Positions 51,806 to 63,961 of a stretch of DNA of 64,000 bases are shown piece by piece (position 1 is the stretch's first letter; the number at the start of each line of letters is the position of its first letter). The position numbers and the translations under genes are program-made. The DNA comes from Candidatus Anstonellales archaeon (lineage in GTDB: Archaea > Micrarchaeota > Micrarchaeia > Anstonellales > J096). The stretch is taken from NCBI GenBank assembly GCA_038896535.1, contig JAWACY010000002.1, positions 91,002 to 155,001 of the forward strand. The letters are read 5' to 3'. The notes beneath the pieces are model-generated. The model ran no database searches. It saw nothing but the letters and a program-made list of their open reading frames with translations, and was not told the origin of the DNA.

Positions 51806-52024
51806 TCAAAGGGAATAAATATAGACTATTGAATCTCCTCTTAAAAACATCTTTTCAGCATTTATTTCCTGGCCGTTTTCAAGCTTCATATTAACTTTTA
51901 GCAATGATAGGTTTAAATGTATGTCATATGCAACAAGCTTTGCTTTTATTTCTCTATTCCCTTTTATGCCTATAACAACATCTTTGCCAACCATCTCATT
52001 TATATAATCAAAGGGTTTTGCCAT
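51806..52024 (-). CDS. Sm-like (LSm) archaeal protein
   Basis: GKDVVIGIKGNREIKAKLVAYDIHLNLSL...FLRGDSIVYIY matches the Sm1/Sm2 motifs. Confidence 0.8.
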   Translation of the reverse strand: MAKPFDYINEMVGKDVVIGIKGNREIKAKLVAYDIHLNLSLLKVNMKLENGQEINAEKMFLRGDSIVYIYSL

Positions 52025-52041
52025 TTTATCAACCTTCTTAT

Positions 52042-52356
52042 TTAACTGCTTGATTGTTGATTACTTTGTTTAGCATCATTTAAAAAACCTTCCCTTTTTT
52101 GTATGTAAACTGGCTCGACTCTTTTTAATACTTCCTTGTCAGCATAAACATAAAATGTTACCCTTATTGCCCTCAAACCAGCCCTTTGTTCTATTTTCTT
52201 AATTATAGTTAACTCTGGGTCTTTTCCAATAGCTGATATTATAGCACTTTTTATCTCTGCTCTTGTTGGGGTTGCTTTATCAAAATGCAAATCAGCAATA
52301 TATTCTTCCCTTCCTATTGCATTATTATCATTTTTTGTTATTATATTTATTTTCAT
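52042..52356 (-). CDS. rps24e: ribosomal protein S24e
   Basis: DKATPTRAEIKSAI...RVTFYVYADKEVLKRVEPVYI fits the S24e family. Confidence 0.8.
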   Translation of the reverse strand: MKINIITKNDNNAIGREEYIADLHFDKATPTRAEIKSAIISAIGKDPELTIIKKIEQRAGLRAIRVTFYVYADKEVLKRVEPVYIQKREGFLNDAKQSNQQSSS

Positions 52357-53650: not shown

Positions 53651-54244
53651 TCATGCTGCTATAATTTTTTGCTCGCTTTTCCTTACAATAACATGTGAAA
53701 CTGGATTTATCTTATTAAGCTCTCTTCCTAAATCCTTTGCAAATGTATCTAATAATATACTCTTTATTAACTCTTCTCTTGTTTTACTGCTTGCTGCTTT
53801 TAAAACAAATGCCTTTGCTGCTTTTCTAAGATTTTTCTTTACTACTTCTGAAACTTTTCTCAATGTTATTATGACAATCTTAAGCCTTATTTTCTGCCCA
53901 TCATTTGTATTGACATCAATGACTTCATGTATAACACTCCTATGTTTTCTTGCAAGGCTCCTTAAATATGATTGTGCAACTTCATGGCCTATGAATTCTG
54001 TTTTTACTGTTCCTTGGCCGAGTTCAATTACTCTTAACAAAACTGTTGTATAAAGGCTTAAAGGAGATGCCTTTATATCTTCAAGCTCGTTCAAAGCCAC
54101 TTTTATTATTCTATTTATTACTGTATCCTTCCTTCCTATAAGCTCACCAACTTGTTTATTATTAAATAATGCTGGAGCAATGATAGCATATTCAGTTTTT
54201 TGTTTTCCTTTTTCTGCTTTTGCTGCTCTTGTTCTTCTTGCCAT
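53651..54244 (-). CDS. rps3ae: ribosomal protein S3Ae (S1e)
   Basis: The 197-aa sequence matches the S3Ae family along its length. Confidence 0.9.
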   Translation of the reverse strand: MARRTRAAKAEKGKQKTEYAIIAPALFNNKQVGELIGRKDTVINRIIKVALNELEDIKASPLSLYTTVLLRVIELGQGTVKTEFIGHEVAQSYLRSLARKHRSVIHEVIDVNTNDGQKIRLKIVIITLRKVSEVVKKNLRKAAKAFVLKAASSKTREELIKSILLDTFAKDLGRELNKINPVSHVIVRKSEQKIIAA

Positions 54245-54257
54245 TTTATCACTCTTA

Positions 54258-54719
54258 TTATGCTCTTATAAGTGCTGCTGCCTCTTCTGGGTCATATTTC
54301 CATGTAGCACTTATCTCGCCTTTTTTCTTATAATATGAAGCAAGCCTGTTTATTTTGCTCAAAATATGGTTATATTTAACCCTATTTGCAATGTCCTTCT
54401 TATTCTTTTTCAAATGCTCCCATAACCTGACAGCTTTTCTAATTAAGTTAAGCATGTCCTCAGGCATTTTTGTATATATTTTTTCCTGCTTGAGAAATTG
54501 TTTCATGCTAACTCCTGTAAGCCCTTTGAATGAAGGCACACCATACTGGTCTCTTAAAATTACTCCTATATTTGCAGTACTATTGCCCTGCCTAAAAAGT
54601 TTTTTTACAATGTCCTTTGCCTCTTCTGCATTTAACTGCGCAAATGCTGGACTGCTTTTCTTCCTGCCAGCAAATTTACTTGAACTTTTTCCTTTTTTCT
54701 TTGAATGCAATCTTGCCAT
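54258..54719 (-). CDS. rps15: ribosomal protein S15 (archaeal S15/eukaryotic S13e type)
   Basis: N-terminal S13e extension and C-terminal S15 fold (GVILRDQYGVP...SKINRLASYYKKKG). Confidence 0.9.
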   Translation of the reverse strand: MARLHSKKKGKSSSKFAGRKKSSPAFAQLNAEEAKDIVKKLFRQGNSTANIGVILRDQYGVPSFKGLTGVSMKQFLKQEKIYTKMPEDMLNLIRKAVRLWEHLKKNKKDIANRVKYNHILSKINRLASYYKKKGEISATWKYDPEEAAALIRA

Positions 54720-55037
54720 TTAATCACCCAATTCAATCATATTTTCTTTATACCCCATCTTTATGAGCAATTCTTTTGCCTTTTTTTTATGCTCACCTTG
54801 CAACATTATCTTATCATCTTTTAAAGACCCACCGCAAGCAAGTTTTGATTTCAACTGCTTGAAAATTTCTTTTATCTGGCTCTTTTCTATGCCTTCAACA
54901 ATTGTTATAAATTTCTTGAACTTTGCTTTTGCAGTATATATTTTTATTCTTTTAACCGCTCCTTCTCTTGTCAATGTATCACAAACGCAAAGTTCAAGTG
55001 GTAAATTACATGTAGGACATTTTTCTCCTATTATAAT
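54720..55037 (-). CDS. sui1: translation initiation factor aIF1 (SUI1), start codon non-canonical or uncertain
   Basis: SUI1 domain (KIYTAKAKFKKFITIVEGI...LQGEHKKKAKELL) preceded in frame by the archaeal N-terminal zinc knuckle GEKCPTCNLPLELCVCD. Between the in-frame TAA and this motif the only codons are GAG GAG GTT GAT ATT ATA ATA, immediately after AGGAGG. The ORF-track start at 54974 is a TTG inside the conserved domain. Confidence 0.75.
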   Translation of the reverse strand: MIIGEKCPTCNLPLELCVCDTLTREGAVKRIKIYTAKAKFKKFITIVEGIEKSQIKEIFKQLKSKLACGGSLKDDKIMLQGEHKKKAKELLIKMGYKENMIELGD

Positions 55038-55067
55038 ATCAACCTCCTCTTACTGCCATTATATATT

Positions 55068-55256
55068 TTAACTTGCATAACCTCCTTTTTCAAACTCTTT
55101 ACCATGTATGAATGTTATTATTCTTGCTCGCATCCTTTTTAATTTCTTTATTTTCACTTCATCCTGGGCTGATAAAGCAAGCATCTCCTTCTCAATATTT
55201 TCAAGCTGCTTTTTCAGCTCATCAACAGGCATTGATTTCAATTCTTTTTTCTTCAT
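55068..55256 (-). CDS. rpl29: ribosomal protein L29 (uL29)
   Basis: MKKKELKSMPVDELKKQLENIEKEMLAL...KIKKLKRMRARIITF matches the uL29 pattern. Lies between S3 and SUI1 as in archaeal S10-spc clusters. Confidence 0.8.
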   Translation of the reverse strand: MKKKELKSMPVDELKKQLENIEKEMLALSAQDEVKIKKLKRMRARIITFIHGKEFEKGGYAS

Positions 55257-55264
55257 TCTACCAC

Positions 55265-55918
55265 CTAATTATTTTGCTCCTGCTGCTCTTGGCTTTGTTT
55301 TTCATTTTCTTGATCTGCATATATCTCTGGCTTAACAAGCCTTGCAATCTCCTTTCTGGCTATTCTTACTGTTATGCCAATAATACCAGATTTCGTCAAT
55401 GCTCCATACTTATAAACACCAACATATCTTGATACATCCCCCGCTTTTGGTACAAATCCAGCACTCACTTTTATACTTTTTGCCTTGCTTCCCTTTGCAC
55501 CAAGCTTTCCACCAGCAATTATTTCAACCCCCAAAGCTCCAGCGTTCATTACAGAACGCATAAGCTTATTAAGAACTGCCTTTACTTTTTCTCCTCTTTC
55601 TATTGCATTTGCTGCTCTTTTTGCAACAATCCTTGGCTCAAGCCATGGCTCTTTGACATCTATTACTGTTATATTAGGATTGTCTATGCCAAAATCATTT
55701 TTTATTTTTTCAACAATGCTCTGTATTTTCCTGCTTTTTTTATTCATCAATCTCTTTGGATCAAGCATCTCTATATATATTCTTGTCTCTACCGGGCTCT
55801 TTTGTATTATAACATTAGCAACAAGCACATTATCAAGCTCTTTTTCAAGAAATTCTGCAATCATGGATTTTTTTATTGCATCTGATATAAATTTATTTTT
55901 TATACTTGTCATAACCAT
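55265..55918 (-). CDS. rps3: ribosomal protein S3 (uS3)
   Basis: KH domain and S3 C-terminal domain, with an acidic Q/E-rich tail. Confidence 0.95.
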   Translation of the reverse strand: MVMTSIKNKFISDAIKKSMIAEFLEKELDNVLVANVIIQKSPVETRIYIEMLDPKRLMNKKSRKIQSIVEKIKNDFGIDNPNITVIDVKEPWLEPRIVAKRAANAIERGEKVKAVLNKLMRSVMNAGALGVEIIAGGKLGAKGSKAKSIKVSAGFVPKAGDVSRYVGVYKYGALTKSGIIGITVRIARKEIARLVKPEIYADQENEKQSQEQQEQNN

Positions 55919-55932
55919 ATTATCACCACATA

Positions 55933-56634
55933 CTATTTATCAATATCTTCATGCCCTTCGCCTTTTTCTTTTTCTCTGCTCTTTTTTTCTCTTGCTTTTC
56001 CTTTTTTGTCTTTGCTTTCTTTTTGTTTGCTTTCTTTTTGTTTTTCTTTTTCTTTGCTTTCTGCTTTTATACTTTCCTGACTTTGACTTGTTTCTCTTCC
56101 TTCTGTCTGCTTTGGCTCTTGCTTCTCCTTTAATTCCTGCTTCTTCTCCTTTAATTCCTGCTTCGGTTTTACTGGCTTTGCTCCTTTTTGCATTACAACA
56201 ATTTCAAGCCTTGCTAATTCATAAGACCTTGGCATCCTCCTTCCCTTTGGTTGCATTCTTCTATATGCCGCTTTTTTATTAGCGCATGCATGAGCAATAA
56301 AAAGCATTTCTTCATTTGCTCCTTTTCTAACTGCATTTGCAATAGCATCTTTTAATAAAGACAAAACATATTTTACTGCTTTTACTGGATATCTGCCTTT
56401 TCTGCCGTTCAATTCTTTTCTATGAGCAAGCTTTTTATTATGGGTTTTATAAAAAATAGGGGTTTTTCCTTCTTTCCCAAGAGAAGCTTTTTCAAGAAAA
56501 ACAATGGCTTTTTGAACATTCATATTTCTTATATTATTACAAACTTGACAAAGATCCTTGAATGAAGCATTAATTGCCTCATTCCTTGCTTTTCCTACAA
56601 TATTATTTTCTTCATCAAATTTCATTGTATACAT
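55933..56634 (-). CDS. rpl22: ribosomal protein L22 (uL22) with about 85-aa K/E-rich C-terminal extension
   Basis: Core L22 (NIVGKARNEAINASFKDLCQV...YPVKAVKYVLSLLKDAIANA) plus a low-complexity KEKQ-rich tail encoded by the short-period repetitive DNA at 55933-56190. Confidence 0.9.
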   Translation of the reverse strand: MYTMKFDEENNIVGKARNEAINASFKDLCQVCNNIRNMNVQKAIVFLEKASLGKEGKTPIFYKTHNKKLAHRKELNGRKGRYPVKAVKYVLSLLKDAIANAVRKGANEEMLFIAHACANKKAAYRRMQPKGRRMPRSYELARLEIVVMQKGAKPVKPKQELKEKKQELKEKQEPKQTEGRETSQSQESIKAESKEKEKQKESKQKESKDKKGKAREKKSREKEKGEGHEDIDK

Positions 56635-57070: not shown

Positions 57071-57838
57071 TCATTGATTTTGCTGCTTTGATGCGGCTGT
57101 CTTTCTAGATTTTCTGCCGGTCATTTTTGCTCTAAGATGGCCAACTTTTTGTCCAGGAACTGCATGCTTTCCAACAGTTGTAGGCTTACCGCCATGATGC
57201 TCTTTTCCTCCAAATGGATGGTCATAAGCAGACATTTTAACGCCCCTTACCCTTGGCCATATTGCATTTGCTGCTTTTCTATATTTATAAAATGCATTTC
57301 CTGCTTTTAATAATGGCTTCTCTTTTATTCCCCCGCCAGCAGCAACGCCAACCTGGGCAAGGCATTCTGGATTAAGATTAATGATTTTGTTGCTCGGCAG
57401 TTTTATTTGCACATAATCCGCGCTTTTCATCAATATCTGTGCAAAACTGCCTGCTGCTTTTGCTATTTTCCCACCATCGCCTGGTTGCTTCTCTATATTA
57501 TAAATGTAAAATCCTTCTGGTATTGATTTCAAAGGCAAGACATTCCCAAGCTTTATGCTTGCTTGCTCTCCTATCTCTATATTGCTTCCTGATACAATGC
57601 CCTCTGATGCAATTAAATAACCTTCATTCCCATCATTAAACTTTACTTTTGCTAATATTGTATTTCTTTCTGGTGCATCTACAAAATCTTTTATAGTACA
57701 TGTTAATAATGGCTTTTCTTTTCTGACTGCTTTTGGATAAAAATCATTATAGCTGACTTTAGCTTTAAACCTATGGCTCTTCGCCCTATATCTTGGCGTG
57801 CCTTTTCCTCTTACTTGCTGTTTTAATCTTTTTCCCAT
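57071..57838 (-). CDS. rpl2: ribosomal protein L2 (uL2)
   Basis: MSAYDHPFGGKEHHGGKPTTVGK and the C-terminal basic region. Confidence 0.95.
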   Translation of the reverse strand: MGKRLKQQVRGKGTPRYRAKSHRFKAKVSYNDFYPKAVRKEKPLLTCTIKDFVDAPERNTILAKVKFNDGNEGYLIASEGIVSGSNIEIGEQASIKLGNVLPLKSIPEGFYIYNIEKQPGDGGKIAKAAGSFAQILMKSADYVQIKLPSNKIINLNPECLAQVGVAAGGGIKEKPLLKAGNAFYKYRKAANAIWPRVRGVKMSAYDHPFGGKEHHGGKPTTVGKHAVPGQKVGHLRAKMTGRKSRKTAASKQQNQ

Positions 57839-57842
57839 ACTA

Positions 57843-58094
57843 TCACGCTATATTTAATTGTGTGGCAAGCTCCTCAATATTAACTTCTGGAGCAAATTTA
57901 ACATAAGCAATTTTTTTACCTTTCCTGACATGAGTATTAATTTTTTCTACTTTAACTTTAAAAATCCTTTCTATTTCTTTCTTTATTTCCTGTGCATTTG
58001 CATTTATATTCACAAAAAATGCGAGCTTCCTTTCTTTTAAAGAAAGTTTTATAATTTTTTCTGTTCTTACTGGGGCTATTATTATTCCTGCCAT
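57843..58094 (-). CDS. rpl23: ribosomal protein L23 (uL23)
   Basis: PVRTEKIIKLSLKERKLAFFVNINANAQEIKKEIERIFKVKVEKINT matches uL23. Overlaps L4 by 13 nt. Confidence 0.9.
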   Translation of the reverse strand: MAGIIIAPVRTEKIIKLSLKERKLAFFVNINANAQEIKKEIERIFKVKVEKINTHVRKGKKIAYVKFAPEVNIEELATQLNIA

Positions 58095-63170: not shown

Positions 63171-63322
63171 TGCCGCGGGTGGGATTCGAACCCACGACCT
63201 CCAGATAGCCCAAAGCCAAATTATAAATTTATAAATTAAATTCAAACATCATTGCATAAGCTCAGCACTCATAGATATATGCTTCCATGAGTCTGGCGTT
63301 CTACCAACTAAACTACCGCGGC
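63171..63322 (-). tRNA. tRNA-Met (anticodon CAU) with 79-nt intron at the canonical 37/38 position
   Basis: Exons give acceptor GCCGCGG/CCGCGGC, D arm GUUU-AGUUGGUA-GAAC, anticodon stem CCAGA/UCUGG with loop CUCAUG|A, variable arm AGGUC, T arm GUGGG-UUCGAAU-CCCAC, discriminator A. Intron begins GAAGCAUAUAUCUAUGAGUGCUGAG and contains CUAUGAG, which can pair with the anticodon-loop CUCAUGG for a bulge-helix-bulge. G1:C72 suggests an elongator or Ile2-type tRNA rather than initiator. Confidence 0.8.
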
Positions 63323-63373
63323 ATTATTTTTTATTAATGCAAATGATTTAAATAATTTTACACAAATCTAATC

Positions 63374-63961
63374 ATGGTAGAAAAAACACACGAAGCAATA
63401 AATATGCCTTGGGAAGATGAAAGGGCAAGAGTTTTTGTTAGCGACATAGGCATAATTTCTAGCAATGGTAAATATGGATATAACCTCATGTCTTGCGAAT
63501 GGACACATCAAATATCTTATAACCCAGCCAGAATTAGCATATCTGTAAATAAAGAAAGTGCGACACTTGAAAATATCATGGAGAGAAAATATTTTGGAGT
63601 AAATATACTAGAAGAAAAACAAGCATTGGTATCAAGCATATGTGGAAACATATCAGGAAAAGATGTTGATAAAATCTCTGTAATAAAAGCACTTGGCTAT
63701 GAATTTGAAAAGGCAAAATATATAGATGTATTATTATTAAGAGATGCTTTATTTAATGCTGAATGCAAAGTCATAAATATCTTAGATATTGGTGACCATG
63801 TGCTTTTTATAGGAGATATTATTGAAGCAAAAAGAAGGAATGGGGCTCCATTAATATATCATGCTGCATCTTATTGGAAAATTGGCGAAAAATTGAGCAG
63901 GCCATCAAAGGAGGAGGTTGATAAAATTAATGCAATCATAGAGAAGTTCAAGAAAAATTAA
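63374..63961 (+). CDS. flavin reductase-like FMN-binding split-barrel domain protein
   Basis: GYNLMSCEWTHQISYNPARISISV and GDHVLFIGDIIEAK match the flavin reductase-like domain family. Confidence 0.7.
   Translation: MVEKTHEAINMPWEDERARVFVSDIGIISSNGKYGYNLMSCEWTHQISYNPARISISVNKESATLENIMERKYFGVNILEEKQALVSSICGNISGKDVDKISVIKALGYEFEKAKYIDVLLLRDALFNAECKVINILDIGDHVLFIGDIIEAKRRNGAPLIYHAASYWKIGEKLSRPSKEEVDKINAIIEKFKKN

Follow-up and report, generated by a model that had tools for sequence, protein, structure and literature searches.

How can a cell begin translation of the archaeal initiation factor aIF1 from a gene that offers none of the canonical start codons? The question is raised by a stretch of 64,000 nucleotides (nt) from a Candidatus Anstonellales archaeon, analysed at its full length and called the window here, in which the aIF1/SUI1 gene lies on the minus strand and reads, in frame, TAA(55052-55050) GAG GAG GTT GAT ATT ATA ATA GGA GAA AAA TGT CCT ACA TGT... 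Translated, this frame gives *EEVDIIIGEKCPTCNLPLELCVCD and continues uninterrupted into the SUI1 domain as far as a TAA at 54722-54720. Neither ATG, GTG nor TTG occurs between the in-frame TAA at 55050-55052 and the zinc knuckle, and the codons that stand there include an ATT (55037-55035), a first ATA (55034-55032) and a second ATA (55031-55029). An earlier note on this DNA had counted seven codons free of a canonical start after the TAA, with a strong Shine–Dalgarno (SD) sequence, AGGAGG, 5 nt before the ATT; re-reading of the frame gave the same result, and the AGGAGG was located at 55048-55043. The sequence comparisons below support the view that aIF1 must use a non-canonical AUH start behind this SD, and by elimination and geometry the codon used is most likely the first ATA. 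The features on which the argument turns are listed here, L001 and L002 being the aIF1 loci of two diverged relatives, L086 that of one of the nearest Micrarchaeia outside their clade, and P0001 a database protein.

55050-55052, minus strand: in-frame TAA that closes the aIF1 reading frame upstream
55038-55048, minus strand: extended SD AGGAGGTTGAT, made up of GGAGG, 1 nt and TGAT (the ideal sequence is GGAGGTGAT)
55035-55037, minus strand: ATT, a less likely alternative near-cognate start at a spacing of 0 to the ...TGAT; AGA in L002 and TAA in L001
55032-55034, minus strand: ATA (AUA), the likeliest start, with a third-position mismatch to AUG, 3 nt after the ...TGAT
55029-55031, minus strand: second ATA, an alternative start and the one picked by NCBI for P0001; GTA in L001 and L002
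54720-55034, minus strand: aIF1/SUI1 coding sequence from the favoured AUA, 104 codons plus TAA (one codon more from the ATT, one fewer from the second ATA)
54981-55019, minus strand: zinc-knuckle codons CPTCNLPLELCVC, with four cysteines invariant in 23 orthologues and mostly synonymous changes relative to L001 and L002
54972-54974, minus strand: TTG, the first canonical codon in frame but not the start (TTA in L001 and L002, CTC in L086); its use would lose the knuckle

Judged by its sequence and profile matches, the product encoded in the window is a genuine full-length aIF1. It matches the Pfam SUI1 family PF01253 (E = 2.4e-16, 60.4 bits against a cutoff of 25.5) and NCBIfam NF002096 (110 bits against a cutoff of 98, over model positions 3-100), and its best solved relative is M. 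jannaschii aIF1 (PDB 4mo0 chain A, E = 4.1e-26, residues 4-102 against 3-101). The archaeal knuckle, CxxC-x7-CxC, shares one continuous frame with the SUI1 domain, as the earlier note had stated, and its cysteines C7, C10, C17 and C19 are the four found invariant in the 23 orthologues. The closest database protein is P0001 (99% identical), which comes from a Candidatus Anstonellales metagenome-assembled genome. A second aIF1 copy is not evident within the 64-kb window. Compared with canonical archaeal aIF1 (M. jannaschii 4mo0; P. abyssi 5jb3/5jbh), the window gene agrees in family, length, CxxC...CxC knuckle and position after uL29; however, canonical genes carry an ATG 2-4 codons before the first Cys, whereas the window gene has none of ATG, GTG or TTG. 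Seven codons without a canonical start are not statistically unusual alone, and the absence matters because a conserved, selected N-terminal domain has none available at all.

The same absence is found in the closest relatives. L003, an independent assembly of the same species, differs from the window by 3 mismatches in 3400 nt (99.91% identity), and its start region is identical. An alignment of orthologous 5′ regions, which the earlier note had proposed as a check, showed that in L001 (74% nucleotide identity) and L002 (71%) aIF1 likewise follows uL29 and has no canonical start before the knuckle. The start region of L001 reads AGGAGG ATG ATA TAA and then, in the aIF1 frame, ATA GTA AGC AAC ACA TGT, so that ATA GTA AGC AAC ACA are the only sense codons before the first Cys, with ATA as the sole one-mismatch near-cognate of AUG; that of L002 reads TAA AAG GAG GTT GAT AGA ATA GTA GAA AAT TGC, in which the start candidates are the ATA or an AAG buried within the SD. 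Common to the window, L001 and L002 is AGGAGG-N-TGAT, followed 3-4 nt later by ATA RTA. A canonical start is thus missing in 3/3 close relatives, and the nearest Micrarchaeia outside this ATA clade use a weak TTG at -4 or -5 (L004, L005, L086, L090, L092, L093). Within the 16 codons of the knuckle, the ratio of synonymous to non-synonymous changes is 7:1 against L001 and 7:3 against L002, and all four Cys codons are kept. Because the changes are mostly synonymous and the cysteines invariant, we infer that the knuckle is translated and under purifying selection, which contradicts the possibility, left open in the earlier note, that this region is untranslated here. The close relatives were obtained solely through exact-protein look-ups, as the genome pattern CGLPx[DE]LCVC misses close relatives of the CNLP type; a metagenome scan with the single aIF1 protein gave no match, and when four aligned sequences were used instead, the scan yielded no more than two loci, both distant and starting with ATG.

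The SD in front of aIF1 is predicted to form the strongest duplex of 72 window gene starts (-13.6 kcal/mol; the next is -11.0), as calculated with a generic archaeal tail as the assumed anti-SD, the window itself containing no 16S rRNA gene. This SD is kept as AGGAGG(T/A)TGAT in L001 and L002. The spacing between SD and start is rigid in the window: GGTG is followed by exactly 5 nt in 7/7 starts, and NTGAT by exactly 3 nt in five of six, the sixth being that of a leaderless gene. Given this rigid spacing together with the comparative alignment, the first ATA (55034-55032) is favoured over the ATT, and L002 has the same geometry (GGAGGTTGAT aga ATA); the second ATA lies 3 nt too far under the window rule. 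What the earlier note had put forward, an AUU/AUA-type start, therefore stands as regards a non-canonical AUH codon behind the SD, while the ATT that it highlighted is the less likely of the two. Examples of the spacing can be seen at 51806-52060(-), 53651-54265(-), 54258-54719(-) and 57071-57847(-).

The arrangement sets aIF1 apart from its surroundings. The other ~70 window genes start with ATG, occasionally with GTG or TTG, after a GGTG-type SD or a TTTAAA promoter located ~27 nt upstream, the latter being found before the ATG of many genes and consistent with leaderless transcripts. No other gene of the ~70 in the 64-kb window was found to be without a canonical start, and in a scan of all 168 stop-to-stop open reading frames (ORFs) in the window that reach 70 codons or more, aIF1 alone had a near-cognate codon behind a strong SD and ahead of its first canonical start. 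An alternative code in which ATA specifies Met was considered and rejected, since ATA also occupies conserved Ile positions in the same gene (RIKIY).

Near-cognate starts on aIF1 recur outside the clade of the window. The archaeal sample consisted of 80 loci fetched from at least 583 matches, and in each the codons from the preceding in-frame stop up to the first Cys were inspected for an ATG, GTG or TTG; in this Cys-anchored count, 11 of 83 archaeal loci had no canonical start. Among the Hadarchaeota, canonical codons are wholly absent from L051, L053, L059, L064 and L075, and in L033 and L041 the one present is a non-conserved GTG immediately ahead of the first Cys. In all seven, GGAGGTG is followed by the uL29 stop, one codon, and a CTG at -4 from the first Cys; this CTG is the only conserved candidate start, and L021 has GTG at the same codon. 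An in-frame ATG at -6 is present in L025 and L027. An out-of-frame ATG overlapping the uL29 stop (ATGA) was seen in 5/7 Hadarchaeota, L051 and L075 being without it, but the ORFs derived from it are non-conserved and of variable length (7-50 amino acids, aa), and sister genomes carry the ATG in frame. In the Aenigmatarchaeota, the presumed start of L076 is an ATA overlapping the uL29 TAG stop (ATAG) and that of L077 a CTG overlapping the uL29 TGA stop (CTGA), while aIF1 of L017 probably starts at CTG. The overlaps in L076 and L077 have the classic 4-nt coupling geometry, here with near-cognate codons.

Control genes taken from the same loci almost always have a canonical start: none was missing in uS3 (0/70) or uL14 (0/61) and one in uS17 (1/62), that is, 1/193 overall, and alignment errors in the controls inflate rather than deflate such no-start counts (the aIF1 and uL24 rows, inflated by gap columns, were not used). 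A different picture was obtained for uL29. In L006, L010, L015 and L045 (AP024486.1, the complete genome of Micrarchaeota ARM-1), uL29 has no canonical start, and GGTG is followed after 5-7 nt by ATA, ATC or ATT and then AAG, in keeping with the conserved uL29 N-terminus there, M-K-I-K-D-I-R; the ATA of L015 stands immediately after an in-frame TGA. The uL29 genes of L007 and L016 probably have an AUH start as well, and this pattern suggests that AUH start codons are more widely used in Micrarchaeia. The Micrarchaeia with an ATH start on uL29 have ATG on aIF1, and uL29 of the window has ATG.

Taken as a whole, the reading that we consider reasonably likely is that of a near-cognate, AUA-initiated aIF1 with SD-directed initiation and negative feedback. 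The intact gene would be expressed within a uL22-uS3-uL29-aIF1-uS15 ribosomal-protein operon. The unusually long SD (AGGAGGUUGAU) would place the 30S subunit on the AUA, with which initiator Met-tRNA would pair despite the third-position mismatch, the strong SD supplying basal recruitment for an otherwise very inefficient codon. By destabilising non-AUG initiation complexes, aIF1 would then lower initiation on its own mRNA as its level rises and allow more as it falls, a negative feedback loop with the same logic as that of the AUU-initiated infC (IF3) and of eIF1 with its poor context. A yield from AUA that falls as aIF1 rises is expected because aIF1 is known to destabilise non-AUG complexes in other archaea: the S. 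solfataricus 30S complex bound both AUG and AUU mRNAs without aIF1, but only AUG with aIF1 (PMC4705826; PMC6237735). Two points favour autoregulation: Hadarchaeota and Aenigmatarchaeota, too, have near-cognate starts on aIF1, and aIF1 is reported to reject AUU-programmed complexes. The finding is well supported as a near-cognate-initiated aIF1 and only plausibly an autoregulatory loop, for which the case is made by analogy with IF3 and eIF1.

The AUU start of infC and translational autorepression by IF3 are described by Butler 1987 and Sacerdot 1996, as cited in PMC3326321. As in that system, a fidelity factor would start at its own AUH near-cognate with a third-position mismatch, and self-repression would be expected; however, IF3 and aIF1 are unrelated proteins, the codon here is most likely AUA, the aIF1 trait is lineage-restricted in archaea rather than widespread, the SD is exceptionally strong, and the archaeal case is known from sequence. 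Autoregulation of eIF1 through an AUG in poor context is attributed to Ivanov 2010 and Martin-Marcos 2011, as cited in PMC3326321 and PMC6237735. Eukaryotic eIF1 (SUI1) and aIF1 are orthologues that share the SUI1 fold and act alike on the small subunit, and the eIF1 mRNA likewise carries a suboptimal initiation site. Eukaryotes, however, keep the AUG and weaken the Kozak context in scanning, whereas in the window the codon itself would be non-AUG, positioned by SD pairing within a polycistronic operon. Monestier et al. 2018 name eIF1 autoregulation solely as an analogy, and no paper on a non-AUG start or autoregulation of archaeal aIF1 was found in the literature searched.

One candidate for a canonical start is the downstream TTG (54974-54972), from which an 84-aa protein without the knuckle would be made, the knuckle codons being an untranslated relic. 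It is the first canonical codon in frame, and the ORF beginning with it is the one listed by a mechanical ORF finder; however, it is not a conserved start, given its replacement by TTA in L001 and L002 and by CTC in L086, and there is no SD ahead of it, whereas a strong SD stands ahead of the AUH codons. With the knuckle cysteines all kept and the changes around them mostly synonymous, we hold such a start to be extremely improbable. Alternatively, ribosomes could start out of frame, on a canonical codon, and enter the aIF1 frame through recoding, either by a +1 frameshift at GGU UGA or by termination-reinitiation, the start being either the ATG of MAVRGG* or the TTG/ATG directly after GGAGG. 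Two short frames in the window are relevant:

55039-55059, minus strand: mini-ORF ATG GCA GTA AGA GGA GGT TGA (MAVRGG*), probably incidental, located in a 14-nt insertion that L001 and L002 lack and with no SD ahead
55031-55042, minus strand: out-of-frame TTG ATA TTA TAA, with the TTG within the SD and the stop overlapping the ATA codons

The counterparts of the second are TTG ATA GAA TAG in L002 and ATG ATA TAA in L001, so that an NTG-ATA-...-stop ORF of 2-3 codons, ending on the ATA or beside it, is common to the window, L001 and L002, which is in line with recoding, as is the loose resemblance of AGGAGG beside GGU-UGA to the RF2 shift site. Moreover, aIF1 of S. solfataricus was once annotated with a -1 frameshift (PMC8211752), although this was later put down to a possible sequencing error (PMC8211752). 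The mini-ORF MAVRGG* that the earlier note had pointed out does exist (55059-55039), but the alternative that the note based on it is not supported, the insertion being specific to this species. The NTG after GGAGG is itself part of the SD, 0-1 nt away, whereas every real start in the window is at GGTG+5; tRNA-Gly would re-pair poorly from GGU to GUU, and the SD, which ought to lie 3 nt upstream of the P-site codon, overlaps it. The frame of the short NTG-ATA ORF equals the aIF1 frame in L001 and is +1 in the other two, and no common mechanism fits. The locus resembles RF2 (prfB) in having an SD-like element near an in-frame UGA, in being a translation-factor gene and in the autoregulatory concept, but the aIF1 leader has no conserved zero-frame ORF, the wrong SD-to-shift spacing and no slippery P-site codon. 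An RF2-type programmed +1 frameshift was rejected on conservation, spacing and codon re-pairing; the short NTG-ATA-...-stop ORF probably just reflects the SD sequence and its A+T-rich spacer, and recoding as a whole appears very unlikely. A sequencing or assembly error, or a decaying pseudogene, would need little, since a single G-to-A change turns ATG into ATA and metagenome-derived sequences can carry errors. Yet L003, the second assembly, agrees here while differing at 3 positions elsewhere, the start is equally missing in two diverged species, and the ORF of this core translation factor is unbroken and has evolved conservatively from end to end; we give this explanation almost no weight.

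The rival that comes nearest to the evidence accepts the AUA start but not the feedback, and we regard it as possible though rather unlikely. The codon could serve to tune aIF1 below the co-transcribed ribosomal proteins, or it could be a tolerated drift from ATG or TTG to ATA in an A+T-rich, small-population DPANN genome with generally relaxed start-codon selection. Such an account would agree with the SD followed by ATA, ATC or ATT on uL29 of other Micrarchaeia, with a genome of 32% G+C, which favours G-to-A drift, with the weak TTG already used by the closest relatives, and with the ATG that most archaea keep on aIF1. It is less easily squared with aIF1 being the sole gene of ~70 in the window without a canonical start, or with the strongest SD, which looks compensatory and not neglected. 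Near-cognate aIF1 starts occur in at least three phyla, including the non-DPANN Hadarchaeota, whereas uS3, uL14 and uS17 almost never have them; and from the reported biochemistry any AUA start would be expected to be sensitive to aIF1, so that some feedback would follow automatically.

Several observations nevertheless weigh against AUA-initiated autoregulation as set out above. As to the codon, the database protein P0001 starts MGEKCPTC, its gene start at L003:1828 being the second ATA, and the commonest distance from Met to the first Cys in the 23-orthologue alignment, -4, also fits that codon; the strength of the SD, for its part, was calculated with an assumed anti-SD. As to the distribution, most sampled archaeal aIF1 genes have an ATG start, which makes the arrangement lineage-specific, and the surveyed loci are without phylogenetic independence and amount to about 3-4 origins. 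Finally, the apparent ATH starts on uL29 mean that, in this class, genes other than that of the fidelity factor can have near-cognate starts; they weaken the claim of a purpose-built circuit and may reflect generally relaxed start selection or drift.

A wider interpretation, which we put forward tentatively and think somewhat less likely to be right than wrong, is that archaea complete a three-domain pattern in which the start proofreader is made from a deliberately poor start, the aIF1-dependent negative feedback having evolved several times independently. The window gene would have AUA as its poor start, Hadarchaeota would have CUG, some Aenigmatarchaeota AUA or CUG, and many Micrarchaeia UUG, each combined with either a strong SD or an overlap between stop and start. 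In a broader version, Micrarchaeia would routinely use AUH starts on certain genes of their operons, namely aIF1 and uL29, and the stringency of initiation would be altered in these reduced genomes. Control of a fidelity factor through the weak start of its own mRNA is established for bacterial IF3 and eukaryotic eIF1; should the AUA and CUG starts really be used and respond to aIF1, this logic would have arisen in all three domains, and more than once within archaea; the strong-SD mRNAs with AUA or CUG would then be natural substrates for tests of aIF1 proofreading in the reconstituted systems of P. abyssi or S. solfataricus. The recurrence in several phyla and the direct testability in archaeal in vitro systems make the finding one of moderate to high interest.

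The annotation of these genes is affected by their starts. A bare non-canonical start is already part of the NCBI annotation of P0001, where it is given without interpretation. Gene callers cut aIF1 within the knuckle when the start is non-canonical or merely weak, giving products of 94 or 92 aa, as with P0002 (L001:1430-1714) and P0003 (L002:359-643), both truncated to 94 aa with a start inside the knuckle. Because gene callers truncate them, aIF1, and in some Micrarchaeia uL29, are mis-annotated or apparently absent or defective in genome surveys. P0072, P0083 and P0092, examined as possible hidden non-canonical starts, were rejected, as they have a TTG or ATG at -4 and their truncation is a gene-caller artefact. 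The NCBI name for these archaeal aIF1 proteins is 'stress response translation initiation inhibitor YciH', which is that of the bacterial paralogue.

The gene order at the locus is uL22-uS3-uL29-aIF1-uS15-S3Ae, and the order uL29-aIF1 is common to most of the 80 archaeal loci. The genes that flank aIF1 are as follows:

55068-55256, minus strand: uL29, upstream, with an ATG start; it ends AAA GGA GGT TAT GCA AGT TAA, the stop being at 55070-55068
54258-54719, minus strand: uS15 (S13e), downstream, with an ATG that directly adjoins the aIF1 stop (TAAATG)

The spacer from the uL29 stop to the first ATA measures 33 nt. Neither a terminator nor a meaningful promoter signal was found between uL29 and aIF1; a TATA-like A+T stretch upstream was considered as a signal and set aside, as its spacing is not conserved in the relatives when compared by eye. 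Folding of the aIF1 start region revealed no regulatory RNA structure (z = -0.63). Further upstream, uS3 (55265-55918, minus strand) ends in a Gln/Glu-rich tail (QENEKQSQEQQEQNN), and uL22 (55933-56634, minus strand; 233 aa) has a long, Lys/Glu-rich, repeat-like C-terminal tail (KPKQELKEKKQELKEKQEPKQ...KEKEKQKESKQKESK...).

Elsewhere in the window, a second copy of GAGGAGGTTGAT is located at 63911-63922 on the plus strand. It was rejected as an SD, since it codes in frame for EEVD near the 3′ end of the ORF at 63356-63961, and its resemblance to the aIF1 leader is a coincidence. On the minus strand at 63171-63322, a complete tRNA was detected with Rfam (61.9 bits) over 152 nt, which ARAGORN did not report and which presumably contains an intron of ~80 nt.

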